Part shown: positions 3,237-64,000 of the stretch, piece after piece | Layout: every line of letters begins with the position of its first letter | Position numbering within the stretch: position 1 is the stretch's first letter | Assembly (NCBI GenBank): GCA_030390025.1 | Contig: CM059431.1 | Span: forward strand, 106,952,001-107,016,000 | DNA: 64,000 nucleotides | Source of the DNA: Squalus acanthias | Lineage: Eukaryota | Direction: 5' to 3' | Program-made: the position numbers and the translations under genes | Notes under the pieces: model-generated | Seen by the model: the letters and a program-made list of their open reading frames with translations, nothing else | Database searches by the model: none | What the model was told of the DNA's origin: nothing

Positions 3237-4961
3237 GGCTGAGATTTTGCGTGGGGTTAGCGGGCGGGATCGGTGATGGGTCAGATGGGAACCTGCTGTC
3301 AACCCGCTGCAATGCACCTTTGCCAATGTTGGGTCTGTCAACGCTGAGCAGACCCAATTGGTAGTGGCGGGGGACCCAATTAAAATCATTAGCATCTACT
3401 TGACAGATGCCTAACAGGTTTTTTGAACTTAGCTGTTGACTTTAACTGCATGACCATGGGAACCAAACTGTTCGGGGACCACGGCTGTCAACCTGAGGCG
3501 GGAGTTCAGTGGCCATTGCTCCAGCTGATTACTTGGCAGCTGCAAGTGTACAGTTAAAGCTCCCACCAGGCAGAAGGTGTTTCTCAGTCCATTTCCAGCA
3601 CAGATTCTGCAGACTTTCCACTTTCCACTCTCCATCCACTCTTACCTCATTGGAAGAACTCTTTCACCATTGACAGATCATTTCTGTCATCTCTACTTCA
3701 CCTGCCATCTATTCCATCAACATGGGTGCCCTTTATACTGTCTCATCTTGGTCCTCAGAATCCCACCACAATCAACCCCAACACCAGCAGCACCAGGCAC
3801 ACCAGCAGTACCAACAACAACACCAATCTTCTCCGCAATCACCTGATACTGCACAGGACAGAAGGCATCAGCACCCGAACATATTGCTGCCCGGGAGGTC
3901 AGGGATGGCCTCATCATGGCTAGATTTACATAAAACTTTACGCTGTACATCCTGGCTGCCACATGATGCGCCAGGTTGGCACCACACCACACCAACACCA
4001 AAGAGCATCCCTACAATGACCTAGCCATTCCTTTCACACTCATCATCATTGCGGGGGGTACCGTTATGTGTCACCATTCACTGCAACTCACTAAGCCACT
4101 TCCAAAGGTGCACACAAATCTGTCCAATACCGGAAAGTGTTGAAAATAAAGATTTCAATGTTTGACAGCACATCAACAGAAACTTTACATGAACATTGGA
4201 TAAAACACACAAGTGGCTACCCTTGTGTGTTGTTAGTTGATATGATTGCACTAGGATGAGGGTGAGTGTGAGTGGTGGCTAGTGAGATGGGAATGTGATA
4301 ATGTAGATAGAGAGAGATGGGTGGAGGTGCAAGGTAAGTTGGTGCAAGTAACGATGTGCAGGAGTAGGGTAGGGAAGGCAGAGTGATGGGGATGTGATGA
4401 GAGGGACAGCAGGATGAGGTTGAGTGTGGTTTTGTACTAACATTTCGTGATCTAATGAGATCATTGAAATGTTTGTGCCACTCCATCCAGGTCCTCCTGA
4501 CCACAGCCCTGCTTGTGCCCTCCTGTGTAATGTGCAACCAGGCTGTGTTGATCACCTGGGGCGGTCTCTTCCGCCCATGGTAACGGAAGAGGACCTCCCT
4601 GCGTGCTGTGACTCCCTCCATAAGCATATGGAGGGAGTCATGGAAGAACGTTGATGCAGCCCTCTCCCTCTGTGCAGTCATTGTCGGTGTTTGCAGCACG
4701 TCAATGCTGCAGAATACTGACAGCAGAAACGTCAAAAGTAAGGCGGCCATGGTCCCTTTAAGGAAAGCAGCTGGTGACGTGTCATGAATGACGTCACCAG
4801 ACCCGCTTCCTCTAATTGGGTCGGGAAACGCGCTGGGCAGGCTTAACGAGCCCTATCAACGTAAATTCATTTTAGGCAGTAGGATGGAGCCAGCAGCGGG
4901 GCCACGACCCCACACCAACATTGCCCACCCCGGACCCGCTGGGGTGAGCAAAATCCCAGCC
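3237..4961. mobile_element. Non-autonomous PIF/Harbinger deletion derivative, copy 1
   Basis: TIRs GGCTGAGATTTTGC / GCAAAATCCCAGCC. Transposase N-terminus on + (MGALYTVSSWSSES, 3722) resembles the 27469 transposase start. Myb-like exon on -. Collinear with copies at 7022 and 62784. Confidence 0.85.
4441..4681 (-). pseudogene. Harbinger Myb/SANT-like DNA-binding domain, exon 1
   Basis: MTAQRERAASTF...REVLF...AW..ITQE...RRTWMEWHKHFNDL followed by a GTTAGT donor-like site. Aligns by eye with the 46938 protein. Confidence 0.75.
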
Positions 4962-5823: not shown

Positions 5824-6583
5824 GGCTTGTAATTTCCAATAGGAGGTTTCCTGCGTGCGGATGCCTCCTATCGGAAAAAAATCTACGGACTTACCTGAGG
5901 GCTCCCGAGGTCCGGACACTTCCGCTCCTGGGCCTCTCCAGAGTCGAAATGCGCAGGGCCCACGTATCCCAGGGGCGCAGGCGGTTCGCAAACGTCCCTA
6001 GGATCACGTGGGCTACGGGGAGCCAATTGGAGAAGGGAATCTCCCTTCATACTTTTGACAGGCAGACCTGTCAAATATATGAATGGAGATCACCCCAAAA
6101 AGACACTAAAACATTAAATACATTTTTAAAAAACCATCACGATTTTAAAATTAGTTAAAATTACATTAAATTAAATATTTTAAACAAAAATTTAATTTTT
6201 TGAACAAAATAATTAAAGTTTTTTACGGGGCTAAAAATAAACTTACCTTTTTTAAAAGTATTTTAAAATTATAAATGAGTGAAAAAAATTTTTTCACTTT
6301 TTTTCAACTCTTATGTTGGTAAAAGCAGGCCTTAAACCTGCTTTTACCAGGCGTAAGATTTCGAAGGGTTTTCTGCGGGCGGATGTTCTCCAGAAAGCGG
6401 AACTATCCGCCCGCAGAGGCCCTTCTCTAGGGCAGGCGTCCGATCTGTCAAGAGCAGTCTTGACAGATTGGAAATGCTGGTTTTCAGCACATGCGCTTCG
6501 CATGCTTGAAACCGACATTTCCAATGTCCCTACGGGTGGGTACACAGTCTGTACACACCCGTAGGCATCGGAATATACGGGCC
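5824..6583 (-). mobile_element. Harbinger-type MITE, family A (reverse orientation)
   Basis: Degenerate TIRs GGCTTGTAATTTCC / GGAATATACGGGCC, ATT on both flanks, GC-rich arms with an AT-rich core. Same layout as the 17636, 19307 and 28719 copies. Confidence 0.8.
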
Positions 6584-7021: not shown

Positions 7022-8769
7022 GGCCAAGATTTTCTGAAGGGGGGTCAGCGGGCGCGATCGGTGGCGGGTCGGGTGGGAAAGTGTTTTTTTTCCCCAGTGT
7101 GTCGGGAACCCACTGTGAACCCACTGCCATGCGCCTTTCCCCGGTGTCGGGTCTGTCAGTGCTGAGCAGACCCGACACGCAGCGGTGGGGGACCCAATTC
7201 AGGTAATTATGGGTCTGTTTAGAGATCATTAAGAATATATTTGAGCTCACCTTTTGATTTTATGTGCTCGACCACGGGGTCCTCGCTGCTCGGGGACCAC
7301 ATCTGTTGAGCTGAGGTGAGAGTTCAGTGGCCATCGAATCAGCTGTTGAGTTGACAGCTTCAAATGTAAAATAAAAGCTCCTACCTTGCAGAGATAGCTT
7401 CCCTCAGCCACAAGCTCTTCCTCACTGCATTTCCACAACAGATTCACCAGGTTACAAGTTTTCACATAAGTCTCCATCCAGTCTCACCTCATTACCTCTC
7501 TCACCATTGACAGATCGCTTCTGTCATCTCTACTTCACCTGCCATCTATTCCATCAGCATGGGTGCCCTTGAAATATCTCACTTTGGTCCTCAGAATCCC
7601 ACCACGATCAGCCCCAACACCAGCAGCACCAGGCACACCAGCAGCACCAACAACAACACCAACCCTCTCCGCAATCAACTGATGCTGCACAGGACACAAG
7701 GCATCAGCACCCGACCACATTGCTGCCCGGGATGCCAGGGATGGCCTCACCATGGCCAGATTTACTTCACTTGACGCTGTACACCCTGGCTGCCACATGA
7801 TGTGCCAGGTTGGCACCACCCCACACCATCACCATAAAGCATCCCTACAATGCCCAAGCCATTCCTTTCACACTCATCACCATTGCGGGGATACCGTTAT
7901 GTCTCACCATTCACTGCAACTCACTCAGCCACTTCCAAAGGTGTACACAAATCTGTTCAAGAACGCAAAGAGTTGAAAATAAAGGTTTCAATGTTTGACA
8001 GCACATTAACAGAAACTTTACATGAGCATTGCATAAAACACCCAAGTGCCTACCCTTGTGTGTTAGTTGGTATGATTGCACTAGGATGAGGGTGAGTGTG
8101 AGGGGTGGCTTGTGAGATGAGTATGTGATAATGTAGATAGAGAGGGATGGGTGGAGGTGCAAGGTAAGTTGGTGTGAGTACGGATGTGCAGGAGTAGGGT
8201 AGGGAAGGCAGAGTGATGGGGATGTGATGAGAGGCACAGCAGGATGAGGTTGAGTGTGGTTTTGTACTAAGGTTTCGTGATCTACTGAGATCATTGAAAC
8301 GTGTGTGGCACTGCACCCAGGTTTTCCTGCCCACATCTCTGCTTGTGTCCTCCTCTGCAACGTGCAACCAGGCTGTGTTGATCTTCTGGGGAGGTTTCTT
8401 CCGCCCATGGGAAGGGAAGAGGACTTCCCTGCGTGCTGTGACTCACTCCATAAGCATATGGAGGGAGTCATGGGAGAGCCTGGGTGCAGCCCTGCACCTC
8501 TGTGCAGTGCTTGTCAGTGTAGAACACTGACAGCACAAATGTCAAATTCAATTTGGCCATGGTCCCTTTAAGGAAACCGGCTGATGACGCGTCATCAAAT
8601 GACATCACCAGACCCGCTTCCTCTAATTGGCCGAGAAACGTGCTGGGCAGGTTTAACAAGCCCCATCAGGGGAAAATAATTTCTGACAGCGGGATGGAGC
8701 CAGCAGCAGGGTCGGGACCCGCCACCGACGACCCGCCACTGACCTGCAGAGGTGAGCAAATTCGCGGCC
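7022..8769. mobile_element. Non-autonomous PIF/Harbinger deletion derivative, copy 2
   Basis: TIRs GGCCAAGATTTT / AAAATTCGCGGCC, flanks AGA/AGG, collinear with 3237-4961. Confidence 0.85.
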
Positions 8770-13262: not shown

Positions 13263-13391
13263 AGGAGGTGAGGAGGAAACTTTTGAGTCTTTCTAGATGG
13301 AGGAACTAAAATGGGCTACAAAGCACTGCTCATTTGAAAATAATGAGAAGTCGCATAACACCAGGTTATAGTTCAACAGATTTATTTAAAA

Positions 13392-13429
13392 TTACAAGCT
13401 TTCGGAGCTGTTGCCCCTTCGTCAGGTAA
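13392..13429 (-). ncRNA. Minimal type I hammerhead ribozyme motif
   Basis: Minus strand UUAC-CUGACGA-A-GGGGC-AACA-GCUCC-GAAA-GCU-U-GUAA: intact core, stem I UUAC/GUAA, 5-bp stem II, palindromic AGCU stem III. Confidence 0.75.
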
Positions 13430-13828
13430 AGGTGCAATGAAGGAATCTACAATATTACACAGTATATAAACACAGAAACTGCAGAGATACAATCTTTCAG
13501 GGAGGGATTACTTCAAAGACACACCAGAGCACAGCCAAGACAATGAGATGGATCACAGGGGGTCCAACGTGTCAAATCCTGCTGTCTGCAGTTGAGCTTT
13601 TAACTTTTTTTTTGGTTTGGTTTTTTTTGTGTTTTTTTTTTAAACTGGAAAGACAGACAACGATGTCGAGTCACGTTCTGTAGCATGACATGAACCATCT
13701 CATTGTCCATCTCATTTTCTTGGCTGTGCTCTGGTGTGTCTTTGAAGTAATGCTTCCCTGAAAGATTGTATCTCTGCAGTTTCTGTGTTTATATACTGTG
13801 TAATATTGTAGATTCCTTCATTGCACCT

Positions 13829-13866
13829 TTACCTGATGAAGGGGCGACAGCTCCGAAAGCTTGTAA
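13829..13866 (+). ncRNA. Minimal type I hammerhead ribozyme motif
   Basis: UUAC-CUGAUGA-A-GGGGC-GACA-GCUCC-GAAA-GCU-U-GUAA, same fold as the left arm. Confidence 0.75.
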
Positions 13867-14235
13867 TTTTAAATAAATCTGTTGGACTATAACCTGGTGT
13901 TGTGCGACTTCTCATTTTTGTCCACCCCAGTCCAACACCGGCATCTCCGCATCATGACCACATTTGAAAATAGCTTGTGATCTTGTGAGAAGCTGGACGA
14001 ATACTAAAAAATGGATAACAGACAGAGAACAGGTGGCGTGAGCATCCTGAATAATAGCTAAAGATGACATACCTTGTCCTTAAATTTTTCAACCTGTGAC
14101 AATAGGATACTGAGGAGCCTGGACAGACACTACTCTTGAAAATTTTAAGGATTGAGATTAGAGTTGCCATCCCTGAATTGGAAAATGATAAAAAGTGCCT
14201 GAAATAGATGATGTTTAGGCAGAAAAGATGAAGGT

Positions 14236-15174: not shown

Positions 15175-16679
15175 GGGCCTTAGAAATTCCAGTACGCTGG
15201 AAACCTGCTGGGAGCAGCGCCGGCCAAGGCTAACGGTCGCCCACCGAGAGAGCGCCGGCAGCACCGCTATTTTGGTGCTGCCTGCTAATTAACATCAGCG
15301 GAGCGTTGATTTTTGTGGTGCAGCGCGCTCTTTCCAGCGCTAAGCTCAGCCAGAGGCCGAAGGTCGCATCCGTGTCCCGCTTGCAGCAAAGGAGAACGGG
15401 GAAGAAAGGAGCGAACCTGTAGGCCAGGTACGGAACAGTTGGCATATTTGCTGCAAAAATATTACCTGCCACCCAATTATTAACTATGTTTGTTGATTTT
15501 TTAATAGTTCATGGAATGAATGCATCTGCGTTCTCTGTGACACTAATCTTTCCCCAATGGTTACTCTTGAAAGTGTTCAAATGTGCAGTAATCCTGCCAG
15601 CTTTTAGTGGGCCTTGCATACTCGACACAAAATAATTATTTGATAAATTATGGATTTTTGAATAAATTAATTATAATTCCTTAAAATCTTAAGCAGTTGA
15701 GTCCAGATTTGCTAGGGGGTGACGTTCTGGTGACCCTATTGTAAAGATAAAAGAGATCTTATCAGAGAAGACCGTCAAACGTTGCAATGGAGTTGTAGCT
15801 TATCTGATGCTCTTCAGCAATTTGTTTTTTTTATTTGCCTGGAATCCGCCGAGGGATTTGCAGTTTTGTGCAGGTGTTCAGTTCTGAACTAAAAGCTTGT
15901 ACCACAAGGTTTCACCCATTGATTTACTGATCCACAAACACTGTAGGCCTCCTGGAAAGCCGCCAGAAAATGCAATAACTCCCCCCACCACCACCCACCC
16001 CCCACGCCCCCCACCCCACCCCACACCCACGCCCACCCACCAGCACCCACCCCACGCCCCCGACCACCACCAGCCCCCCCACGCCCCAGACCACCACCCC
16101 ACCCATGCCCCCCACCATCCCCCCCCACACACCTGACCACCACCCCCTCCATGCCCACACCATCCCCCCCACAATCCCCACCACCACCAGCCCCCCCCCA
16201 CGCCGCCCCCCCACGCCCCCCACCACCACCCATGCCACTGATGTGCAAAAAATGAAAGTATAAAAGAAGAACCTTTGCAAAGGAGGCGTTTGAAGTTCCA
16301 GCATCCGTCTGAGCTGTTTTCCACTTGCCAGCCTCCATCTTGTCTACAATCTGCCAAGTCCTGCCAGTCAGTTGAAGCATCCTCAAGGCCGTTAACGCTG
16401 CTGAAGTGCTTTTAATGGCTGCACGCAAGGGCGTGCTTCAGTGGGGGTGACAAGAGGAGCGGCGATATCTAAAATGGATCAGCAGGCGTCAACTCGGCCT
16501 TGCGTGTCGATTGACATCACGCTCCGACTAATTACAATAGTTTCAACGAGCGCAGGCAACGGCAGTGCTGCCGACCTGACGAAAATGGCGGCCGCCGGCA
16601 ACGGTCGAAAATGGTCGCCACATTTTTCCCCGAATCGGGCGGTTAATGGTTGGCGCTAAACCCTCTGAATTTTTAGGCC
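15175..16679. mobile_element. Decayed Harbinger-type element
   Basis: TIRs GGCCTTAGAAATTC / GAATTTTTAGGCC with ATA flanks and GC-rich ends. Faint transposase-like remnants on + at ~15750-15980. Confidence 0.65.
15981..16232. repeat. C-rich degenerate tandem repeat (CCACCACC/CCCCACGCCCC units)
   Basis: About 250 bp of almost pure C/A, seen directly. Confidence 0.9.
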
Positions 16680-16887: not shown

Positions 16888-17187
16888 GGGCTGGATTTTG
16901 ATACTGGGGCGGGTTGGGGTCGTGTTATCCACTTTTCGTGTTATCCACCTGACTGCAATTGGATGTGGGAGATTGATGCAATTTTCACCTAATTGGGCAA
17001 TTGAGTTCCAGCATGTGGGAACCCATGACCCAATTAGTGTTTTCAGTCTGAAAGTTGCCTCTGATGATGTCATCATTGCTGCTGCATTGAAGGTCTTCAG
17101 AGACTGCCTGGCCTTTGCTGTGAGAGGACCTGGATGCAAAATGAGCAGCAGCAGTCCTAAGTCTGCTCCCAGATATTTTTACACCAC

Positions 17188-17252
<65 letters not shown>

Positions 17253-17552
17253 GTGCTCCCGCCAGCTTTCACAATCGTGGTTCAGACCAGGCGTGCTTCA
17301 CGTAGAACAAGGGTTAAAATCACAAAGGCCTTTCAAAATGGCATTATAGAGCCAATTTAATGCTTGTTAAGGGCCTTAACAGCCTATCCTGTCTCTTAAA
17401 GGCGGGACGGAGTCGGGACCAGCAGACACGATTTAATGAAATTTGCGTGGAGGCGGGATGGAGGCGGACTTGTGCCCGCCCGCCAGTTTTAACAATTTTA
17501 ACCCCCCACACGCCTCCAAACCCGCCTCCACGGGTCAATGAAAATCCAGCCC
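16888..17552. mobile_element. Harbinger-type MITE
   Basis: Perfect 12-bp TIR GGGCTGGATTTT / AAAATCCAGCCC with exact ATT TSD (16885-16887, 17553-17555). Confidence 0.85.
17191..17248. repeat. (AG)29 microsatellite
   Basis: Pure dinucleotide run inside the MITE. Confidence 0.95.
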
Positions 17553-17635
17553 ATTGAGTCTGCGCTGGCTCTTTCCCCATTTCCCTGCAATTTTTTCTCC
17601 TTCAAGTATTTATCCAATTCCCTTTTGAATCTATT

Positions 17636-18388
17636 GGCCCGAAAATTAGACCTAATACGCGAGAGTACGCACTGTGTACTCTCGCGTTTTAGGTCTCCAA
17701 TTGCCGGTTTTCAGCATGCACTGTGCATGCGCGGGAAACCGGCACTTCGTGAACTCAAAAGGGGGCGGTTCCTAAGTGAACCGCGTGCGCGCTACAGGCT
17801 GCGCACACGCAGTGCACTTAGTGCTTTGAACGCGCAGGTAAGCATGAAAGATTTTACACATAAAGAAAGGAGGCGTAAGACCCTCTTTAAACAAGGTAAG
17901 TAGTTAATTAAGTATTATTTTAAAATGTTTTCAACAGGTTTATCTTTTTTAGAGACTTTAAAGAAAGGTAAGTTTATTTTTATAACTTTTAAAAAGATTT
18001 AAAATTTTTTCAAAAATTTAAATTTTTGTTTAAAGTGGTTAATTTATTTAAATATAGTTATTTTATTAATGTGATGGTTTTTAAAAAAAAATAATTGAGG
18101 TTTAGCTGTTCTTTTGGGGGTAAGTTGTATTCATAGCTTTGACAGTTGTCCTGTCAAAACTATGAATGAAAGATGGTGTGCTGCCATTGGCTCTAACTGA
18201 ATCACGTGATCCCACAGCTCGCACGAACTAACTGCGTCTGTGGGTCACGCAAGCACTGCACAGCTGCATGTGGGACTGGCCTTGAAACTAAAGTTCGTGT
18301 GAGCCCGGAGGGAAAAGGTAGGCGCGCAGTGAGATATCGCGGGGAAGCCTTACCCCCGCAGGAACACTCCGTGTTTAATTTCTGGGCC
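17636..18388 (+). mobile_element. Harbinger-type MITE, family A
   Basis: TIRs GGCCCGAAAATTA / TAATTTCTGGGCC, ATT TSD, closely similar to 28719-29483. Confidence 0.9.
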
Positions 18389-18779
18389 ATTATTATTGAA
18401 TCTGTATCCACCGCCCTATCAGGCAGTGCATTCCAAATCCTAACCACTCGTTGCATAAAAAGTTTTCCCTTATGTCGCCTCTAATTCTTTTGCCAATCAC
18501 CTTAAATCTGTGCCGTCTTGTTACCGACCCTTCAGCCATGATGAAGGAACAAATAATCTGTTTTAGGTCATGTTGGTTGAGGGCGGAACATTGGTCAGGG
18601 CACCGAACATTTGTTCATCCCTAGAGAAATAAATCATGCCAACGTCACAAAGCCACGGGCTGGATGAGATAATGGTCAAAATCCTGCAGAATACGAATTT
18701 TTCAGAGAATCTCCTCTGCATAAATGGTCAACTGCTGATTTTAAGATCGAATAAGGAACAAGATAAGACTGTGCTCTGT

Positions 18780-19306: not shown

Positions 19307-20060
19307 GGGCCAGAAATTCGGGTCTCCACGGGTGAGTACGCGCTGTGTACTCACCTGTAGACCCAACGAAACTGCCGGTTTCGCGCATGCACTGCACATG
19401 CGCTGGAAACCAAAACTTCCGTTCCCCTGAAGGAAGGGGTTCAGAGGTCGAACACGTGCGCCGGAGAGGCAGCGCGCACGCAGTGAACTTCATTTTTATT
19501 TTCAGCTTTCTCCGTGAGGGTAAGTACGGAGAAGCTGCGCAGGAAAAAAGGAAGCGCAAGGCCTGCTTTTAACAAGGTAAGTGGTGAATTAAGTACTATT
19601 TAAACATTTTTTCAACAGGTTTATTTTTTTTACATTAAAGAAAGGTAAGTTTATTTTTAACACCATTAAAAAGTGTAATTAATTTTTTCAAAAATTTAAA
19701 TTTTTGTTTAAAGTAGTTAATTTATGTAAGTTATTTTAAAATTTGATTTTTAAAAAAAATTTATTTGAAGTTTAAGTGAGGTTTTGGGGCCGATCTCTAT
19801 TCATAGATTTGACAGGTCATCCTGTCAAAATCTATGAATGGAGATTCCCTGCTCTGATTGGCTCTCCATGGCCCACGTGATCCCAGGGGACGCTTCGAAC
19901 TAACTGCGCCCCTGAGATATGCAAGCACTGCGCGCCGGCAGCTGCAGGAGGCCCAGGAGCCGAATTCCATGTGGGCCCGAAGCACAATGGCAGGTGCACT
20001 AGGTAAGTACGCGTGCGTTCCTTGCACCCGCGGGAAGCCGGAGAGCCGAATTTCTGGCCC
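19307..20060 (+). mobile_element. Harbinger-type MITE, family A (divergent subfamily)
   Basis: Perfect 15-bp TIR GGGCCAGAAATTCGG / CCGAATTTCTGGCCC, flanks ATT/AAT. Confidence 0.9.
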
Positions 20061-25906: not shown

Positions 25907-27469
25907 TTATTGAAATCTGCCATTGATAAGGGTATCCCTGGCGTGACGGGCTGCAAAGTGCTCGCGTACTGGTCGCAATGGGACCGCCGGCTCGTCCAGG
26001 TGTTCCTCATCCTCGTAACCAACCTCATGGAGAGCCTCCTCATCCTCATCCTCCTCGTCCTCCGATGAGGCTCCTGCGCTCAGCGGTGTCTTCCTCATCC
26101 AGTACTAATCCTCACTGCTGTGCTATGTTTTGCAGGGCTCAGCAGATGACGACTATTCGTGAAACGCTAGCTGGTGCGCACTGAAGGGCTCATCCAGATC
26201 TATCGAGGCATCTGAAGCGCACTTTGAGCAAGCCTATTGTCTGCTCGATGACACTTCTCGTGGAGATGGGGTTTTGATTATAACATCCCTCAGGCTCATC
26301 TGTTGGCCTCTTCAAAGGTGTCATGAGCCACGTCTTCAGGGGAGAGCCCTTGTCTCCAAGCAGTGTACCATCTACAAGATGCACTGCAGCAACTCGCCAA
26401 GGCTTCTTTGGCAGCACCTCCCAAACCTTCAACCTCTTCCACCTAGAAGGACAAGGGCAGCAGGCACATGGGAACACCACCACCTCCAAGTTCCCCTCCA
26501 AGTCACACACCATCCTGACTTAGAAGTATATCGCCGATCCTTCATCGTCGCTGGGTCAAAATCCTGGAACTCCCTCCCTAACAGCATTGTGGGAGTAGCT
26601 TCACCACATGGACTGCAGCGGTTCAAGAAGGCGGCTCACCACCACCTTCTCAAGGGCAATTAGGGATGGGCAATAAATGCTGGCCTTGCCTGGGACACCC
26701 ACATCCCATAAACAAATTTTTTAAAAAGCCAGCCGCCAAGACTATTTGGTGGTGCGAAGAGCTGAGGGACAGTGGAATGGCGCAGGATGTATGATTCATG
26801 GCAGCTGCCAGGGAACTTGGCGCACACATGGATGATAATCTTCCTATGGTTGCAGACCAGCTGAACGTTGAGGGAGTGAAAGCCCTTGCGGTTAACAAAT
26901 ACTACTGGGTTGTGATGGGGTGCCGTGATGGCCACATGTGCGCAGTCGATGACTCCTTGCACCCGTGGGAAGACAGCTAGAGCGGCAAAGCCAAGCGCAC
27001 GTTCATTGACAGTGGCTTCATCAGTTGCAAAATGAATATAATTTGTGGACTTGTTAAAGAGGGCATTGGTGTGTGGCTGACTGCGAGATGCCTGGAAGGA
27101 GCCTGAGGTGAAGAAGTTGAGGGCAAGGGTGAATTTGACAACCACTGGTGAAGAATGTCCACCCCTTCCTCTGGGCTGCAGGTCTTGCTCCAGTAAAGCG
27201 CAAATGTCTGCGATGACCTGGCGCTGCTGCTCCGTCATGTTGAGGAAGCTCATCCTCTGCCGGTATACCCTGTGTTGGGAGTATGGCCTCCGGCGCGGTG
27301 CAACCCTGTGCTGATGCCCTCTGCCCTGTGCTGTATCAGGTGGTTGAGGAGAAGGTCGGCGCCCTTGTTGTTGTTGCTGCTGCTGCTGGTGTGGATGGTT
27401 CTGCTGCTGCTGCGGCTGATCGTCATCAGATTCGGAGGACCAAGGTGACAGAGCATAAATCGTGCCCAT
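25907..27469 (-). pseudogene. Harbinger DDE transposase (HARBI1-like), disrupted
   Basis: [52 protein letters not shown]. Internal deletions, stops and a LINE insertion. Confidence 0.9.
26362..26725 (+). mobile_element. CR1-group LINE 3' fragment inserted in the transposase
   Basis: CTIYKMHCSNSPRLL...SWNSLP...FKKAAHHHLL, same family as 41680-44412. Splits the GGWL/LGDKG motif. Confidence 0.85.
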
Positions 27470-28404
27470 TCTGATGATTCATATGGCAGGTGAAGTTCAG
27501 ATGACAGAACCAATCTATCAAAGGTGAGATATGAGGTTGCAAGGAGGTGACAGTGAATAGAGAGTTTACTGCAAACACTTCCCAAATGCATAAAGCTTAA
27601 AAATCTGTTCCAAATACCTGAAGTTTCTGAGATTGGAAAGTGACCAGCTGTAAAATGGCAGGTTTTAAACCACTTTTGCAGCTGTCACCTATTGAAAGAA
27701 ATGGAGAGTTGTTCAGAACCCAACATACTTACCTGGCCTGATCCCCGAGTGACGGGAACCTCGTGGAAAACTTGGGAAAATGTTTTGTACCTGGTAAAAT
27801 GGTGATTAAATTGCTTTAAACACCCTCTCAATGAGCGCAATTGAATGACCCGCCACTTAGTGCCGTGTCTGCAGAGCGCAGGCAGAGCCGACGTTAGGGA
27901 AACTCACAAGGAGGCGGGTTTAGAGCGGGATACCGCCCCGCTGTCAATCATTTGGATTTTGACAGCGGACCCGCCTCCGAACCCGCCCTCTGAGCGCCGG
28001 CAAAATTCAGCCCCATGAGTGGAACTTTTTATCCAGTTCCCACACCAGTCTTGACTCTCTGAGTTGAGATTGCCAGTCAGTGATGAATTAGCATCTGGTT
28101 TGCGGAGTGAGCCCATGGTCACGACCAGCTAGAGGAAGTCGATTGGTTTGTGCGATTAAAAGTATTTATCTATCTTTGTCACCTTGGCTCCTACCACAGA
28201 TTGCCACCAAAAGAGTAAGAGCAAGCAGAATGGAATAAATCAACTCTCTGTATATTCTATTTTTGTTAATCTGAAAGGAATCACTATTTAAAATGGTCTG
28301 AATCGGACAACTTCATTATTTTTGAATTGACCTAAAGTGACTCAATTTGAGTTACCTCAGGTCTGGAATCAATACTGAGAAGTTCAAGCCCAACAACAAA
28401 AATA

Positions 28405-29590
28405 TTTTCATAAAATGCTGGAAATACTCAGCAGGTCAGTCAGCGTCTGTGGAGCTTGAGACAGTTAACTTATCAAGTCGATGACCTTTTGTCAGAACTG
28501 GAAAAAAGTCAGAGATGTAACAGGTTTTAAGCAAGTACAGAGGCAGGTAAAGGCGGGGGGGGGAGGGGAGGAAAGAACAAAAGGGAAGGTCTGTGATAGG
28601 GTGGAAGGCAGGAGAGATTTAAATCACTCCCTATCTCTGCAACCTCTGTACTTGCTTAAAACTTGTTACATCTGTAACATTTTCCAGCTCTGACGAAAGG
28701 TCACAGACCTGAGACACAGGCCCAGAAATTCGTCCGAATACGGGAGAGTACGCACTGTGTACTCACCCATATTCGGTCCCGAAGTGCCGGTTTCCTGCAT
28801 GCACTGCGCATGCGCGGGAAACCGGCACTTCTGATATTGCGAAGGGGGCGGTTCCTAAGTGAACCGCGTGCGCACTACAGGCTGTGCGCACGCAGCACAC
28901 TTAGTTTTTTTTTCAGGTTTCAACGCGAAGGTAAGTGTTGAAGATTTTACACATGAAGAAAGCAGGCGTAAGACCCCCTTTTAACAAGGTAAGTAGTTAA
29001 TTAAGTATTATTTTAAAAAATTTCAACAGGTTTATCTTTTTTAGAGACTTTAAAGAAAGGTAAGTTTATTTTTATAACTTTTAAAAAGAATTTAAATTTT
29101 TTCAAAAATTTAAATTTTTGTTTAAAGTGGTTAATTTATTTATCTATAGTTATTTTATTAATGTGATGGTTTTTAAAAAAAATTTAATTGAGGTTTAGCT
29201 GTTCTTTTGGGGGCAAGTTGTATTCATAGCTTTGACAGCTCTTCCTGTCAAAACAATGAATGAAAGATGGTGTGCTGCCATTGGCTCTAACTGAATCACG
29301 TGATCCCAGAGGTCGCATCAAACTAACTGCGCCTCTGGGACACGCACACAATGCGCGCCGGCACCAGGGAGAGGCCCAGGAACTGAAGTTCGTGTGGGCC
29401 AAAACCATAAAGGCAGGCGCGGAGTGCGATATCGCGGGTGATCCTTACCCCCGCGGCAACCATCGAAGTCCAATTTCTGGGCCATTAAGTCTGTTTCTCT
29501 CTCCACAGATGCTGCCTGACCTGCTGAGCATTTCCAGCATTTTCTATTTATATTTCAGATTTCCAGCACCCGCAGTATTTTGCCTTTTGA
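28405..29590. mobile_element. PLE fold-back element interrupted by a MITE
   Basis: Left arm 28405-28545 is the reverse complement of 28640-28715 plus 29484-29550. Hammerhead-like CTGACGA..GACCT GAGA at 28690. Confidence 0.75.
28719..29483 (+). mobile_element. Harbinger-type MITE, family A
   Basis: TIR GGCCCAGAAATT / AATTTCTGGGCC. Flanks ACA/ATT do not match. Confidence 0.9.
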
Positions 29591-30943: not shown

Positions 30944-31620
30944 GGGCCTGAATTTGCGGTCGGAGGCTTCCTGAGGGCGGATGCCTCCGACCGACAATAA
31001 ATCTACGCACCTACCTGATGGTCCTGGAACCGCGGAGACTCGCGCTCCTGGGCCTCTCTGCGTAGACATGCGTAAAGGCCCACATATCCCAGGGGCGCAA
31101 GCGGTTCGCAAGCGACCCTGGGATCACGGGGACCGGCCCAATGAATGAAAGAAGGGAATCCCCCTTCATACATATGGGGATTCCGTACATATAGAATCTC
31201 CATAAGCATGAATGGGAATTACCCCAAAAAAACATGTACACATCAAATTTAAAAAAAAGACATATTTAAAATGAATTGAAATGCCATTTAATTAAATATT
31301 TAAAACAAAACATTATTTTTTTGAAAAATAAATGTAAATGCTTTCAAGGGGCTAAAAATAACCATACCTTATTGTACAGGTTTTATAATGTTTAAATGAT
31401 TGAAAAAAAAATATGTTTATGTTCATTTAAACTCTTACGCTGGTAAAAGCAAGCCCTGCACCTGCTTTTACCAAGCGTAAGAATTTCACGGGCATTTGCT
31501 GGGCAGAAGTTGGGCAAACAGCCCAACTCTCTGCCTACAGATGCCCTTTTCCTGGAGATGCGTTGGCTCTGTCAAGAAGATAATTCACAGATCGCAAGTT
31601 CCGGGTTTTGGTGCATGCGC
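30944..31620 (-). mobile_element. Harbinger-type MITE, family A (reverse), right end lost
   Basis: ATT then GGGCCTGAATTTGC, collinear with 5824-6500, ends at a short CR1 piece. Confidence 0.75.
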
Positions 31621-31774
31621 CTTTTGGAAGTCCATGTACACCACATCAACCGCATCGCCCTCATCAGCTCTCTCTGTTACCTCAACAAAAAACTCAATCA
31701 AGTTAGTTGCTGCCAGGAAGACGGATGTGAAAATGTGCACCAATTGAGGAGTAACTTGCCGATTACAGTTTGAT

Positions 31775-45320: not shown

Positions 45321-46937
45321 GTTAAAGCATTGATTTTACTTGCATTGCATCTTTTAATGACAAAATAATTTATTAAATCAACAATAATTAAATCAGTGAC
45401 TGCTGATGGGCTAACCAAAAATGAAATACATGTTTTCCTTCTTTCAATATGATTTTATGTTATTAGCATGAGATAGGCCTTGAGTTTAATCGCGAGTGAA
45501 CATTTTTACACACTGATCTGCTGTAATCTCAATATGTAAAAATATCTTCTGACGAGGTACCAATTGGTGCTCATTAACTTCAGCACAATTACTCTTTGGC
45601 CTTCTGATAAATGTTTTGCTTTCTGTTAGTGAGTGCTGAAAAACACAGTGGAATGCTTCATCACTTTTGTGCATCGTTTTCAAAACAGGTGCAATGTTTG
45701 TCTGATTTTTTTTTAATCTCATACTTAAAACAGTTCTCATTATCCTACCAGCTGCAAGACACATGGGTATAGTAGATGAAAATGTTACAATTAGCCATTC
45801 TGTGTTGGGATTATAGGAACAGGAGTTGGCCATTCTGCTCCTCGAGCCTGTTCCACCATTCATTTCGATAGTGGCTGATCTGTAACTCAACTCCGTTTAG
45901 CCACCTTTGATCCATATCCCTTGCTAAATTTACCGAATAAAAATCGGTCAATCTCAGTCTTGAAAATTTCAAATCTCCTAGCATCCACGATAATTTGGGA
46001 GAAGAGATTCCAGATTTGCTCTATCTTTTATGTGGAAAAAGTGCTTCCTGATTTCACTCCTAAATGGCCTTACTCTAATTTTAAGTTTATGCCCTTTGTT
46101 CGGGATTCTTCAACAGAGGAAATAGTTTCTCTGTGTCTACTTATTGAATCATTTTATCATTATAAACACTTCAATTAAATTATCCCTCAACCTTCTAAAC
46201 ACAAGGGAATACAAGCTTATGCAACCTGTCTTCATAACTTAAGCCCTGGTATTATTCTGGTGAATCTGTGCTGGACCCCCTCCAAGGCCAATATATCCTT
46301 CCTGAGGTGCCCAATACTGAACGCAGTTACTCCAGATGGGGTCTGACTTGAGGGGGTCCAGGTACATAGATCATTAAAATATCATGAACAGGTACAGAAA
46401 ATAATCAAAAAGGCCGATGGAATGCTGGCCTTTATATCTGGAGGACTGGAATACAAGGGGGTAGAAGTTATGCTGCAGCTATACAAAACCCTGGTTAGAC
46501 CACACCTGGAGTACTGTGGCAGTTCTGGGCACCACACCGTAGGAAGGATATATTGGCCTTGGAGGGAGTGCAGCGTAGGTTTACCAGAATGATACCTTGG
46601 GGGAGAAATTCGATATCGCCTCGTTTGGGGCACTAAATTTTGAAATCGTGGAAAATTAGCGCCAGGCGCTAATGAGTCTGAGCTTCCCCTAAATTGGCTG
46701 TTAGCGCCCCTGGAAAGAGCTGGAGCACTCAATCAAGTGCTAATGATCTCAGTGGGGCGCTACAGGGGCGCTACCAGTAGAGCGATAATGAATTTCAGGT
46801 GCTATTCAATCGGGAATGATCCTTCACACTGGCTCCTTCCAGCTCTTAAAGGGGAGGCTGCATCATTGTGCAGCTCCTCATTATCAGCATTGCTGGCTGT
46901 GAAGACGACCTGCAACCAACTCAATCCCCTGATCGTG

Positions 46938-48131
46938 ATGGCTGCTCCCACTCCCAGGGAGAGAGCTCGTCATTTCACGGACGAGGCATTGGTCGCGGGA
47001 GTGGAGCGAAGGAGGGCAGTGCTGTTCCCGAACACTGGAAGGAGGCCATTGCCCCAGGTCTTCAGGGCAATGTGGAGGGAAGTGGCCCAGGAGGTCTCGG
47101 CCAGTAGTGTGGTCGTACGCAGCCTGACACAGTGCCGGGAGAAATTCAACGACCTCACTCGGGTGGTCAAGGTGAGTACATGCTTCAACAGGTCCTACAG
47201 ACCAGCATCTGAACCTCAAGGCCAGGGGAAAAGGGTAGCTCGGGAGCTAATTCCCCGGAGGGTGAGTTCGCACGCAACTTCTGCTGCACAGGACTCAGAT
47301 GACAACCTCGATGTGGAGGCATTCACAAGAAGGGTGATGGGCATGCACTGCGAGATGATAGGTGCAATGGCAAGGGTGCCCGAGAGCCTCTCGGCAATGG
47401 TAAGGAGTGTGGAGGAGTCCACCTCCAACATTGCACAGAGCTCTGTGCACACCATGGAGCCCATCATTTCCACTCTGCAGAGGATGGTGGACTCCCAGAG
47501 AAACCGTGCGGATCCAGACCTCATGACATGTGTCATGGGCGATGTGGAAGCTTCCATTGCAGCACAGGCGGAAGCGATGCAATGTCTTAGCGCTATAATG
47601 CAGGCAATGGTTGGTGGCATCGAGCCTCAGACTGCTCTCATGCAGTCTCAGCTTGATGCCACGCAAGCTCTGACTACTGTCATCGTCGCTGGGTCCACCA
47701 CAGTCCACCGGGGATCTCACGGTGTTGCAGCAGGCCACCAATCTCTACTCCAGCAGATTAGTAGGGATGCTGAGGTGCTGCCCTGGGGAAGTGGCAGTGG
47801 GTCAATGGAGCAGGAACCTGCTGTCCTCTCTCAGGATGACAGCATTCCTGATCCCACCACTGCCACTCAGCCATTGCACTTGTCGCTGCCTGTCATCCAG
47901 CCAGCCCAGACTGGCGCCGCCCAGCCTGAGGTGGTGCAGTCTACAGCCGGGCCTTCCAGGCCCAGAGCTGGTCGAGGGTGTCTTGCAAGGCCATCTGTAG
48001 TTTCTGGCACTGACACTCAGCAGCCTTCCACCCGCCCTGCTGCACCCACTGGGGAGACACTACGTAGGAGCAGTAGATTAAGGAAAGGCACTGTAAAGAA
48101 GGCAAGTAAAGGCTTGCACAGGAGTCATTAG
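46938..48131 (+). CDS. Harbinger Myb/SANT-like DNA-binding protein, 397 aa, open
   Basis: MAAPTPRERARHFTDEAL...RRAVLF...MWREVAQEV...RSLTQCREKFNDL, followed by a heptad-like middle and a Pro/basic tail. Confidence 0.75.
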   Translation: MAAPTPRERARHFTDEALVAGVERRRAVLFPNTGRRPLPQVFRAMWREVAQEVSASSVVVRSLTQCREKFNDLTRVVKVSTCFNRSYRPASEPQGQGKRVARELIPRRVSSHATSAAQDSDDNLDVEAFTRRVMGMHCEMIGAMARVPESLSAMVRSVEESTSNIAQSSVHTMEPIISTLQRMVDSQRNRADPDLMTCVMGDVEASIAAQAEAMQCLSAIMQAMVGGIEPQTALMQSQLDATQALTTVIVAGSTTVHRGSHGVAAGHQSLLQQISRDAEVLPWGSGSGSMEQEPAVLSQDDSIPDPTTATQPLHLSLPVIQPAQTGAAQPEVVQSTAGPSRPRAGRGCLARPSVVSGTDTQQPSTRPAAPTGETLRRSSRLRKGTVKKASKGLHRSH

Positions 48132-48296
48132 TTAATATTGTTGCTGTATATATGTGGTTGCTGAATGTAGATAAATGTATTATTGGAATGTTGCAGATTT
48201 GGGGCTGTGTCTCATTTCAACTTTGGGGTGTGGTATGGAATGAGAATTTGATGGAATGATGGGGACATGCTGAGCTACCAGGAAGTGGCCTCCAAT

Positions 48297-49481
48297 TCAT
48301 TGGAACCGAAGTCTGATGAGGCGGTCACGGACCACCCTTCCACAAGGCCGATTGAGTGGCGACCTCCTCCGTCGCTGATGTTCGTGCTCCTGTTCACCCC
48401 CCTCCTCCTCCTCCTCCTCCTCATCCTCATCCTCGTCCTCCTTGTCTCCCTCTTCCTGCTCCTGAGGTGGTCCTGCTATTCCTGGTGGCAATGGCTGCGC
48501 CCTCATGATGGCCAAGTTGTGCAGCATGCAGCAGACCACCGTGAAAAGGGACACCCGCTCAGCCGAGTACTGGAGGGCTCCTCCCGAGCGATCAAGGCAG
48601 CGGAACCATTGCTTGAACACTCCGATGGTCTGCTCAATGATGTTCCTGGTGGCAGCATGGCTCTCATTGTATGAGTGCTGCGCAGGAGTGTTGGGGTTGC
48701 CGAGGGGAGTCATGAGCCAGGTGGAGAGCGGATAGCCCTTGTCTCCCAGCAGCCAGCCACCAGCTTGGTGTGGTGGCTGGAACAGAGCTGGCAGGATGAA
48801 TGCATCGTGGCTGCTGCCAGGAAAGCGGGCATTGACGGTGAGGATTCGCCATGTGTGGTCGCACACCAACTGCACATTAAGTAAGTGGTAGCCTTTGTAG
48901 CTACGGAATACCTCAGGATTGTTACGGAGTGCTCACAGAACGACGTGGGTGCAGTCAATGGCGCCCTGCACCACGGGGAAGCCCGCTATCCTGGCAAAGC
49001 CACATGCACACTCGCGCTGCTTCTCTCTGGTCATCGGGAAGGAAATGTAGTCCCTTCTCCTTCTGTAGAGAGCATCTATGACTTCGCGGATGCAGCAATA
49101 GACGGCGAACTGCGAGATGTTCGCTATATCTCCTGTTGCACACTGGAAGGATCTGCAGGCGTAGAAATTGAGGGCGATGGTGACCTTGACTGCCACTGAG
49201 AGAGCCGTGGTGCTCCTGATGTGAGGCTCAAGGTGTGGCTGCAGGAGGTGGCAGAGTTCTGTGACCACGCCCTTGGTGAAGTGGAGCCTTCTAAAACACT
49301 GTTCCTCAGTGAAATTCATGTAGGAGAAATGTTGCCGGAATACCCTGGGTGGGTAAGGCCTCCTGTTGAGAGCCCTGTTGGCCCTCCTCCCTCTGGCCAC
49401 ATTTTGCAATCTCTCTCTCTGGCTCTGCTGCCTCCGACGTTGACGCTGGAGGGCCAGGTCCAGTGCCAGTACAGCCCCCAT
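48297..49481 (-). pseudogene. Harbinger DDE transposase (HARBI1-like) with one in-frame stop
   Basis: ORFs 48933-49508 and 48297-48875 share a frame and are separated by a single TGA at 48933-48935. GAIDCTH, FPGSSHD, LLGDKGY and IEQTIG are present. Confidence 0.9.
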
Positions 49482-51017
49482 TGAAGTATGGAAATGTTGC
49501 ACTTTCAAATCTCAACTAAATGAAAGTGAATAATTTTTCTGAGCCAGAAGACTCCTTCAAGTGAAAAATGCTGAAATCGCTCAAAACGCCTGTTTGCCTA
49601 TGTCAAACTGACAAGACAGCATTCTTTGCCGACTAAATATAAACCGGATGTTGATGCCTTTATATACAGCTCCTCCAGCGCTCATCCGACTGCATTCCGC
49701 CTCCTTTACCTGTCGTTGCTAACAGCAGGCGCTCAGGCAGGGGGCAAGAGTGAATTTCTGAGCTGGGGCGCTGCACAGCCGGATGAAGTCACGATCTCCG
49801 GGCGCAGGAGAACGTGGCGCTAGTGGTTACCGCCGCCGCAAACCTCCACCTCAATTTTGCGGGCGTCGGTACTATCGCCCCGCCCGGTTGCTAAGCCGTT
49901 AGCGCCCCTCGGAGGCACTAATGGGAGGCGCAAAGGTACCCAATTTCTCTCCTCTGGACTTCAAGGGTTAAGTTACGAGGAGAGATTACACAAATTAGGG
50001 TTGTATTCCCCAGAACTTAGAAGGTTAAGGGGTGATCTGATCGAAGTTTTCAAGATATTAAGGGGAACAGATGGGGTCGATAGAGAGAAACTATTTCCGC
50101 TGGTTGGGGAGTCTAGGACTAGGGGGCATAGTCTAAAAATTAGAGCCAGACCTTTCAGGAGTGAAATTAGGAAACACTTCTACACACAAAGGTTGGTAGA
50201 AGTTTGGAACTCTCTTCTGCAAACGGCAATTGATGCTAGGTCAATTGTTAATTTTAAATCTGAGATTGATAGCTTTTTGTTAACCAAAGGTATTAAGGGA
50301 TATGGGCCAAAGGCGGGTATATGGAGTTAGGTCGCAGATCAGCCATGGCGGAACAGGCTCATTGAATGGCGGAACAGACTTGAGGGGCTGAATGGCCTCC
50401 TCCTGTTCCTATGTTCCAAGGCTCTGTACAACTGAAGCATACCATTCTTCACTCTGTATTCCAACCCTTTTGAGATAACTTGTTGGATAACCTGTTGAAT
50501 AGCTAATTGCTCTTTCTCTTATATTAAACCAAGGATATATTAATAGCTTCCTCATTTAATTTTTTTTAGATGGATTACTTTGATAAATAGCGTGACCCGA
50601 CCATCCAATGTAACTACACTAGTGCATTTCTCAAAATGCAGGGTGTCCGTGGTGGCTACCATATGTCTGGCTACCGTATGCCCAACACAAAGCACCTTCT
50701 GGCGGGGCTCAGTAACTGAACCTGTTTGTGCTTTGACAGTTCTATGTGAAGCCCTTGGAAGATGTCATTGTGGCAAAGGTTTCACATAGCAGCCTGAATG
50801 GGTGGCCTGCTGAGGTAAGGGTAGCATATGAGATGTAGTGAAAGAGCTGTAAGTTGTAAAAGGGCTTGGCATGGAAAAGCAGTAAATGTGGAGCAGGCTG
50901 ACAGGCAACATTTTGTGGCATGCAATCTTGGGCTATCTAACTGGTACGTGGTAGCATTACCATCCCACCTTCCCTAAAGTGCGCATATTCTTCCACATCT
51001 ACCCCAAGTTTTGCAGC

Positions 51018-53699: not shown

Positions 53700-54460
53700 G
53701 GGGTAAAAATTGAGTCGCGCCCCATTTGGGGCGCTAAACTCGCCGGGGCGCGACTTTTAGCGCCCTGAAAAAATTAGCGGCCCCGCGCCGGAACTTCAGT
53801 GGTTGCGCCCCAAGAGGGAAGCGGGGCGCAACTGGAAGCAGCCCGCATCCCTCTTGGGGCGCTGCGAGTGAATATCCTGGCGCTACGTGCCACAGCGCCA
53901 CGCGCTGCGGCACGTCGCGCCGCGGTATTGCAGGCCTTCCTCCCCTTCTTAAAGGGGAGGGACCCTGCGCAGCGCGAACCGGGGCCCAGCTGGGCCCCCA
54001 GGGATCGGGAGTGCCGGCAAAAGAGCCCGGCACTCAAGAGAAGTGCCGGGCTCTTGGAGCGCAGCCGGCACTTCACGGTGGGGGGGCTTCACGGGGGCCG
54101 GGGGCAGGTGCTGGCAGGCGGCCAGCAACAAAAATGGCCGCCTGCCACCTCCGCTTTAAATATCGCCGCCCCGGCCGCACGTACGCCTCCCTGAACCCGT
54201 CGGACATAGCGTCTGGCGGTAAATCAGGGGGCGCGACTGAAGATCACGGCCGGGGCGCGAGCGGGGTGCTGCGCACGGCGATGACGTCATCGCCGGCGGC
54301 GCAGCGCCACAGGGCGCTACCGGCTGCCGCCGCCGCTAACCTCCCACTAAATTTTTCGGGAGGCGTGGGCGGCGCTGCGCCCGGGCGTTAGCTGCTTTAC
54401 GCCCCATTAGCGCCCTCTTAAGGCGCTAACGGGAGGCGCAAGCAGCTGAATTTTTCCCCC
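53700..54460 (+). mobile_element. CpG-rich Harbinger MITE related to the 46599 element
   Basis: TIR GGGGTAAAAATT / AATTTTTCCCCC, exact ATA TSD. The right end CTAACGGGAGGCGCAA matches 49918-49933. Confidence 0.88.
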
Positions 54461-58454: not shown

Positions 58455-59149
58455 GGGGGGCAAAATTGGGTGCCTTTGCGCCTCCCGTTAGTGCTAATGG
58501 GGCGCAAATGGCTTTGCGTCCGGGCGCGGTGCTGACATCGACTCCCGCCATATTCGCCGGGAGTTTTGCGGCGGCGTTGTGGCCCGATCTCCTTCGCCCG
58601 GAGATCGTGACGTCATCGCCCCGGTAGCGCCCCAGACCTGAAATTGACTTCTGCCCCCTGCAGCAGCGCCGGTCGAAAACACCGGCAGCTGCAGGAGGCG
58701 CGCATCGGGCGGCCGGCTGCTTCGAGGGCCATGATTAAAGGCGAGGTGGCCGAGGTAAATAAACAAAAAACGTACCTTTCCTGTTCTAGTTTTTTTCGCT
58801 GCTTGAGTACCGGGGCTGATCGCACGGGATCGCGGCTGCCTTGGTGGTCCAGGTAGGTACTTTTTATATTGCAGAGCCTGCAGCGATGGCCCTTCTCTTT
58901 AAGGGAGGGAAGGAGCCTTTGAACGCGGCAGCGCTGCACGGCCCAGTGTGCAGCGCTGCTGAAGTCTCTGTCCCGCCTGCTGCCGATTGGGCTCCAAGAA
59001 GGAAGTGGAGCGATTGATTTACCGCTCCACTTCCTCCTTGGAGTGCAAACGGCGAATTTTTCAAAAGTTTGAAATCGTTCGCCCCTGGGCTAACTTTTCA
59101 AACTTTTAAAAATTAGCGCCCCAAACGGGCGATAGTGAATTTCTCGCCC
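58455..59149 (-). mobile_element. CpG-rich Harbinger MITE related to the 46599 element (reverse)
   Basis: The first ~170 bp align with the reverse complement of 49765-49952. The last ~60 bp align with the reverse complement of 46599-46670. Confidence 0.85.
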
Positions 59150-62783: not shown

Positions 62784-64000
62784 GGCCGCAATTTTGCCAG
62801 CGCTCTGCGGACCCAATTGATGGTGGGTCAGCTGTGAAATTTAAAATGAACCCACTGTCAAAACGCGCACACCTGCATTTCCCGATGTCGGGTCTGCCAG
62901 CGCTGAGCAGACCCGACAGGCAGCGGCGGGGGACCCAATTTAAATCATTAGTGACTTGTTTACAGCCTCTTAACAGTGCTTTTTTCCCAGCTTTTTAACT
63001 TTCACAGGTCTCCCAGGGGTTTCCCGCTGTGCCTAGACCTCATCGGTGAAGCTGAGGCGGGAGGTCACTTGCCATTGAATCAGCTGATGAGTTGACAGCT
63101 TCAAATGTCAACTCAAAGCTCCCAGCTGATTCAGATAACTTCCCTTCAACATTAGCATCTCTAAACTGCATTTCCACCACAGATTCAGGATGCTGCAAGT
63201 CTTTACATAAGTCTCTATGCATTCTGACCTCATTACCTCTCCCACCATTGACAGATTGCTTCTGTCAACTCTACTTCACCTGCCTCTATTCCATCAGCAT
63301 GGGCGCATTTTATACTATCTCACTTTGGTCCTCAGAATCTGACCACGATCAGCCCCAACACCAGCAGCACCAGGCACACCAGTAGCACCAACAACAACAC
63401 CAGCCTTCTCCACAATCACCTGATGCTGCACAGGACACAGGGCATCAGCATTCGACTACATTACTGCCCGGGACACCAGGGTTCGCCTCACCATGGCCAG
63501 ATTTACTTCACTTGACGCTGTACACCCTGGCAGCCACATGATGCGCCAGGTTGCCACCACCCCATACCAACAACATAAAGCATCCCTACAATGCCCAAGC
63601 CATTCCTTTCACACTCATCACCATTGCAGGGGGTACCGCCGTTATGTCTCACCATTCATTGCAACTCACTAAGCCACTTCCAAAGGTTAACACAAATCTG
63701 TCCAAGAACGCAAAGTGTTGAAAATAAAGGTTTCAATGTTTGACAGCACATTAACAGAAACTTCACATGAACATTGGCTAAAATACACAAGTGCCTACCC
63801 TTGAGTGTTGTTAGTTGGTATGATTGGACTAGGATGAGGGTAAGTGTGAGGGGTGGCTATTGAGATGGGGAAGTGATAATGTAGATAGAGAGGGATGGGT
63901 GGAGGTGCAAGGTAAGTTGGTGTGAGTAAGAATGTGCAGGAGTAGGGTAGGGAAAGCAGAGTGATGGGGATGTGATGAGAGGCACAGCAGGATGAGGTTG
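62784..64000. mobile_element. Non-autonomous PIF/Harbinger deletion derivative, copy 3 (runs off the window)
   Basis: TIR GGCCGCAATTTTGC inserted in a SINE fragment, collinear with 7022-8250. Confidence 0.85.

Follow-up and report, generated by a model that had tools for sequence, protein, structure and literature searches.

The window (the whole 64-kb stretch of DNA that was analysed) is rich in repeats; it contains fragments of LINEs and numerous TIR elements, and some of the latter encode Myb/SANT-like and DDE_Tnp_4 domains; a Myb-like protein together with a DDE transposase is described as the two-gene signature of PIF/Harbinger (PMC9710019). As shown in Table 1, it contains five copies of a short element, designated family A, four of them full and one truncated, with three copies in plus and two in minus orientation. 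The full copies were small and uniform in size (753–765 bp), and the longest ATG ORF per copy was 58–83 aa (58 aa in A1), in agreement with an earlier note on this DNA, which had seen no ORF in the element. The TIRs are 12 bp long and begin with G, as in PHIS MITEs, matching at 12/12 positions in A2 and A3 and at 8/12 in A4. An exact 3-bp target duplication (ATT/ATT) was present in two of the four full copies (A1 and A4); the flanks of A3 were ATT/AAT (one mismatch) and those of A2 ACA/ATT (unmatched). A2 is set between pieces of other repeats (28640–28718 and 29484–29590), and its left flank is possibly rearranged.

Table 1. Copies and features of family A, and other elements discussed, by position in the window
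Feature	Position	Strand	Remarks
A1	17636–18388	+	753 bp; TIRs 10/12 identical; ATT at both flanks
A1 left TIR	17636–17647	+	preceded by ATT target duplication at 17633–17635
Three subterminal palindromes	17648–17821		NRF1-like motif in second; GC box between second and third
D1	17835–17843 (GT 17838)	+	A1–A3 subfamily only
D2	17893–17901 (GT 17896)	+	A1–A3 only; homologous to palindrome-arm end in A4/A5
TTAAT (branch-point-like) and acceptor-like TTTTCAACAG	17904–17937	+	A1–A3 only
AT-rich core	17905–18135		79–82% AT; between-copy conservation highest here
Putative micro-exon, acceptor to D3	17938–17967	+	30 nt
D3 and U-rich tail	17965–17982 (GT 17968)	+	best-conserved block of family A
Right module	18129–18208		palindrome 18129–18167; ATTGG/CCAAT 18186–18190; E-box CACGTG 18203–18208
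Right-end donor DR	18315–18323 (GT 18318)	+	~70 nt from TIR, facing outward
A1 right TIR	18377–18388	-	followed by ATT at 18389–18391
A2	28719–29483	+	86% identity to A1; donors 28931, 28989, 29060
A3	19307–20060	+	~73% identity to A1; donors 19520, 19577, 19645, 20003
A4	5824–6583	-	divergent subfamily; donors D3 (6246) and DR (5894) only
A5	30944–31625	-	truncated; D3 variant AAG/GTATGG (31367) and DR (31014)
H3 transposase-side leader	27465–28014	-	decayed Harbinger; donors 27790, 27732; acceptor ends 27689
MITE family C	58456–59149		unrelated to A; donor-plus-U-tail at 58775 (-) and 58853 (+)
Families B, D, E	15176–16679, 16888–17552, 53700–54460		non-autonomous, Harbinger-type

A TWA target duplication marks PIF/Harbinger in the narrow sense, and assignment of family A to PIF/Harbinger sensu stricto was rejected, its duplication being of the type AWT instead of TWA. 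Other elements in the window had duplications of ATT, TTG, ATA and ATG. In Han et al. 2015 the duplication of Pangu is given as ANT and that of NuwaI as CWG; the AWT of family A matches the former and not the latter (PMC4482050). Because AWT fits Pangu while the neighbouring elements have the Myb-plus-transposase layout, family A was filed at the level of the PHIS superfamily only: it is a non-autonomous, non-coding MITE of PIF/Harbinger type, ~755 bp in length. Non-autonomous copies in the PIF/Harbinger superfamily are mobilised as DNA by proteins in trans, and by analogy family A most likely transposes as DNA, using proteins that autonomous Harbingers provide.

Among 31 candidate rows no host exon was recognisable by eye in the window; none of 141 unmasked ORFs matched Pfam at the cut-off, and Rfam gave no match in the window. 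No strand skew was detected across the 28,638 unmasked bases. In this unmasked part, which showed neither a base skew nor a host exon, GGTAAG occurred 11 times on the plus and 3 times on the minus strand. A pattern for family A had no matches in metagenome contigs or in viral contigs.

Palindromes and promoter-type motifs

Family A has GC-rich, palindrome-packed ends flanking a core of about 80% AT. Copies A1–A5 contained 5, 5, 3, 10 and 4 palindromes, against at most 0.5 in shuffles, and the DNA fold had a z score of -12.2 (20 shuffles). Over the leftmost 195 nt of A1–A4, 14 of the 53 predicted pairs of the subterminal palindromes had changed two-sidedly. The palindrome arms (17648–17821 and the homologous parts of A2–A4) co-change between subfamilies. 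Such covarying arms suggest either arm homogenisation or selection on hairpins or cruciforms. Phased A-tract bending in the AT-rich core was rejected, as no 10-bp A-tract periodicity was found.

CpG o/e was 0.82–1.06 in family A versus 0.49 in the window. An NRF1-like motif was found in 5/5 copies and an E-box in 4/5, with counts mostly significant against shuffles; since the NRF1-like motif lies inside a palindrome, its weight as promoter evidence is reduced. The NRF1-like TGCGCATGCGC that the earlier note had located at 28805–28815 was confirmed. Its GC box GGGGGCGG at 17761 (17761–17768) is also present, with a count at chance level (p 0.09–0.17, where the box is present), and of its E-box/CCAAT module the E-box was mostly above chance and CCAAT at chance (p 0.07–0.5). 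A GTGATCC sequence in the right module was invariant in all five copies. This module could equally be the inward-facing promoter of the opposite end of a two-gene Harbinger, and its outward use is argued by the donor DR alone. Poly(A) signals numbered 0, 0, 2, 1 and 1 on the donor strand of A1–A5 (expected 1.45–2.46) and 4, 4, 4, 5 and 3 on the other strand, an asymmetry that was significant in no copy.

Splice donors on one strand

The count of GGTAAG per strand against shuffled sequence, which had been proposed as a check, was run with 1000 dinucleotide shuffles per copy as the baseline, giving 4, 3, 4, 2 and 0 occurrences on the donor strand of A1–A5 against about 0.2 expected. For A1–A4 the expected numbers were 0.27, 0.23, 0.20 and 0.21 (p = 0.002, 0.002, 0.002 and 0.025, values that are not independent because the copies are related), and for the partial copy A5 0.13; the opposite strand had 1, 1, 0, 0 and 0. 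Sites agreeing with the 9-position 5′ splice-site consensus at 8/9 positions or more numbered 3, 3, 5, 2 and 1, against 0.12–0.27 expected. The sequence common to all donors was the splice consensus only, and the sites were co-oriented, with no mirror image between the ends. One strand of family A bears 5′ splice sites of U1 grade.

All donor GTs reported earlier for A1–A3 (those in Table 1, and 18120 in A1), as well as the reversed sites at 5889–5897 and 6241–6249, were present on the strand given for them. The site at 18318 is not the full consensus donor it had been taken for, and reads AAG/GTAGGC. Several donors had been ascribed to each copy: this holds for D3, found in 5/5 copies, and for DR, in 4/5, and does not for D1 and D2, in 3/5, or for 18120, which was absent from the four copies other than A1.

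D3 lies mid-element. With its U-rich tail it formed the top window of the 817-column alignment, 16 of 18 columns being invariant across the five copies; the next non-overlapping 18-column windows, which contain no donor, reached 14/18. The core AAG/GTA was kept in all five copies, and the chance of keeping these six bases, calculated from flank identity, was 0.04–0.11 in the divergent copies. The contexts of D2 and D3 were 81% alike across 16 nt. DR had the form AG/GTARG in four of the five copies, at the same place or at most 9 nt away (in A3 it is displaced by 9 nt); A2 has GC at this position. Flank identity at DR between A1 and A3, A4 or A5 was 49–56%, and the chance of retention was 0.01–0.03 per pair. 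The donors were kept while family A copies diverged by 30–50%, and D3 and DR appear to show signs of constraint. Wherever D1, D2, D3 and DR occur, they lie outside the hairpins that were detected.

The main acceptor-like site, TTTTCAACAG, lies 302 nt from the left end of A1 and would close an intron of 100 nt from D1, or of 42 nt from D2. The acceptor-like sites proposed earlier were borne out in so far as TTTTCAACAG occurs in 3/5 copies; it falls below the pyrimidine threshold, which the next AG, 15 nt on, passed, and an acceptor of that grade was found in this zone in 42–50% of shuffles, i.e. at chance level. The same note had described family A as a promoter-plus-donor MITE with two tandem modules. 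Co-oriented donors above chance and CpG-rich ends agree with the former, with the left three-donor module missing in 2/5 copies; the left and right modules share no sequence, and their tandem duplication was rejected on this ground.

U-rich tails aid U1 recruitment via TIA1-type proteins. A donor-plus-U-tail pattern, defined after inspection of D3, gave 13 sites in the window, nine of them in MITEs, which occupy 7,338 of the 64,000 bases. Family A had six against 0.48 expected, and families B–E three against 0.23; all three of the latter belong to family C, and two of them overlap.

Other elements and a possible origin of the left module

Family C has a TTG duplication, a CRE motif, TATA-like sites and strong donors on both strands. 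Families B, D and E had no donor of 8/9 or better. Family D ends 83 bp upstream of A1 and also has an ATT duplication; B, D, A1 and A3 lie within 5 kb. In 17 other Harbinger ends, 7/9 donors numbered 11 inward (8.16 expected) and 9 outward (8.81), and 8/9 donors 4 inward (0.95) and 3 outward (1.22), with both family C sites entered from each end. Inward-donor enrichment is at best weakly indicated as a general rule of Harbinger ends.

Three Harbinger derivatives (3237–4961, 7022–8769 and 62784–64000) have kept the start of the Myb-like gene and lost most of the transposase; each contains a perfect AAG/GTAAGT (4334, 8164 and 63912) antisense to the Myb-like gene, apparently in its first intron. 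A near-complete two-gene Harbinger lies at 46599–49951, with the Myb-like ORF on the plus strand and the transposase on the minus strand over two frames. Inverted repeats at 13336–13552 and 13706–13922 are 96% identical across 217 bp and presumably resemble Penelope-type terminal repeats.

In the leader on the transposase side of H3, two donors lie 225 and 283 nt from the TIR, and an acceptor ends at 326; the corresponding distances in A1 are 203, 261 and 302. The pattern donor-58-donor-42/44-acceptor, tuned after inspection, had four matches in 128 kb (A1–A3 and H3) against 0.075 in shuffles. It was missing from all three homologous leaders (H1, H2 and H5), which have lost most of the transposase. 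It had been foreseen that the donors might be leftovers of an autonomous element's 5′ UTR; the H3 spacing agrees with this, and the three spacing-free leaders do not. A profile search of family A against autonomous ends gave no match, and local alignments of four copies (A3 left out) with 14 ends gave short AT-rich or motif-sized matches only. Anchored global alignment to H3 had z scores of 4.3, 2.0, 1.6 and 1.7, which we read as driven by the motifs themselves. The ORFs of another Harbinger, H4, contain Myb_DNA-bind_5 and DDE_Tnp_4, and its TIR is similar to that of family A, with no internal homology between the two; a search for relatives of the H4 transposase in metagenome contigs gave 593 pattern matches, none of which was confirmed. 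It is plausible that the left module came from a transposase-type leader, the spacing hinting at a 5′-UTR origin.

Interpretation and comparison with known systems

The reading that we tentatively prefer, while giving it somewhat less than an even chance, is that family A has Harbinger ends of promoter type, in which selection at the level of the element keeps the U1 sites. Its ends would go back to those of a two-gene Harbinger, where the promoters lie, and its left part to a transposase-type leader with a promoter, a short first exon and a 5′-UTR intron of ~100 nt. At least D3 with its U-tail, and probably DR, would have been retained through selection on the element as landing sites for U1 snRNP. 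Such sites may help to keep promoter-like DNA transcribed and open to transposase, and may suppress premature polyadenylation, by which an insert of 80% AT would become tolerable in host transcription units. The element would move as DNA with autonomous Harbinger proteins, and chimeric transcripts would be spliced only now and then, as a side effect and not as its purpose. U1 is known to suppress cryptic polyadenylation in introns (PMC10228655); its benefit to a DNA transposon is something that we infer, not a described mechanism.

Selection on U1 sites is supported by the one-strand donor excess, the D3 block and the retention of DR, as well as by the excess of donor-plus-U-tail sites, CpG o/e near 1, the NRF1-like motif and E-box, and the H3 spacing. 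The co-oriented, shared splice-consensus core argues for it too, together with the known suppression of cryptic polyadenylation by U1. Against it, the whole AT core is better conserved than the ends, with non-donor blocks at 14/18, and D1, D2 and the acceptor are missing in 2/5 copies. The five copies are related, the motifs were chosen post hoc, and aligners favour common motifs; the H3 and U-tail patterns were likewise tuned post hoc, and the leaders homologous to H3 are without the spacing. The lack of homology to autonomous ends, the non-significant poly(A) asymmetry and the donor-free families B, D and E also count against it.

A rival reading, which we consider rather unlikely, is a neutral relic. 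Here the donors would be left from the promoter and 5′-UTR introns of an autonomous parent; some would have been multiplied where short stretches of the AT-rich core were duplicated, and they would now be decaying without function. The spacing shared with the transposase leader of H3, the absence of D1, D2 and the acceptor from A4 and A5 through loss, and the likeness of the D2 and D3 contexts are all consistent with such a relic, and the leaders of H1, H2 and H5 would be expected to be without the pattern if it were relevant only to transposase expression; splice sites inside DNA transposons are, moreover, already recognised (PMC9341512). However, D3 and DR persist where the surrounding identity is only about 50–70%, an outward DR is unexpected from an inward-reading end promoter, and no parent with homologous ends was found in the window.

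It is unlikely that AGGTAAG is a DNA-level motif which matches U1 by coincidence, whether it is bound by the transposase or its Myb-like partner or is a side effect of palindrome arms (CTTACG/CGTAAG and TTTTACCAG). The donors are co-oriented and not inverted between the ends, D3 is mid-element, D1, D2, D3 and DR are outside the detected hairpins, and the shared bases are those of the splice consensus, extending further only at the D3 tail. Such a motif would nevertheless be in keeping with the covarying palindromes (3–10 per copy) and the strongly negative fold score, with the homology of D2 to a palindrome arm in A4 and A5, and with the Myb-like protein of Harbinger3_DR, described as binding a 9-bp subterminal motif (PMC9710019).

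The model of the earlier note, a mobile promoter and first-exon cassette that would launch spliced chimeric transcripts at many insertions in the manner of MaLR LTRs, appears improbable: promoter-type motifs do lie upstream of strong one-strand donors, A1–A3 have a canonical 100-nt intron geometry, DR faces outward and a retroelement precedent is described (PMC13408016), but no host exon to splice to was found in the window, making RNA brings no direct gain to a cut-and-paste element, and the left module is limited to one subfamily.

A non-coding DNA transposon is expected to need just the cis-sites for cut-and-paste. If the best-conserved block of family A serves RNA processing, the way in which such elements treat host transcription would also be under selection, and cartilaginous fishes would have an abundant source of new first exons outside the retroelements. 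Should the donors prove to be relics or motifs at the DNA level, family A is an ordinary MITE. A wider proposal, which we regard as doubtful, is that Harbinger MITE families in this genome were independently selected for housekeeping-type promoter motifs and for U1 sites with U-rich enhancers. They would then be a very abundant DNA-transposon counterpart of MaLR LTRs, protecting host transcription from premature polyadenylation and seeding new spliced first exons.

There is nothing unusual about family A as a transposon. In vertebrates, short non-coding derivatives of Harbingers are known, e.g. those of Harbinger-Snek (PMC8437027), and family A resembles Tourist-like MITEs, the Harbinger-Snek derivatives and PHIS elements, as these are described, in its short TIRs starting with G and its 3-bp duplication (PMC8437027, PMC4482050). 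Like those PHIS MITEs it is also small, uniform in size and non-coding, and occurs alongside Myb-like plus DDE transposase elements of similar TIR. It is unlike them, as far as the descriptions of PHIS go, in its conserved co-oriented splice donors, and no vertebrate Harbinger MITE with conserved donors was found in the literature searched.

Introners, reportedly described by Huff et al. in 2016 as intron-generating DNA transposons, non-autonomous and carrying splice sites, are similar in being non-autonomous DNA elements that bear such sites. Intron formers of the Introner or Ds type have donor and acceptor at or beside the element termini. Introner-like removal was rejected for family A, whose donors are internal (203–333 nt from the left end) or face outward ~70 nt inside the right end; because its splice sites are internal or outward, splicing would not excise it, unlike Introners. 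It also resembles DNA transposons with splice sites that permit capture by host transcripts (PMC9341512), sharing with them internal splice signals and the potential for joining to host RNA.

MaLR/MT LTRs are described as supplying a promoter and a splice donor to LTR-initiated transcripts (PMC13408016). Like them, family A is a dispersed repeat combining promoter-type motifs with a donor on the same strand, here as sequence motifs, and as a unit of promoter and donor it would act in the manner of MaLR LTRs. An identity as a retroelement LTR was rejected, given the TIRs and the 3-bp duplication. MaLR/MT are retroelement LTRs with mapped starts and junctions, whereas family A is a TIR element and, unlike MaLR/MT as described, it has several donors plus an internal acceptor-like site.
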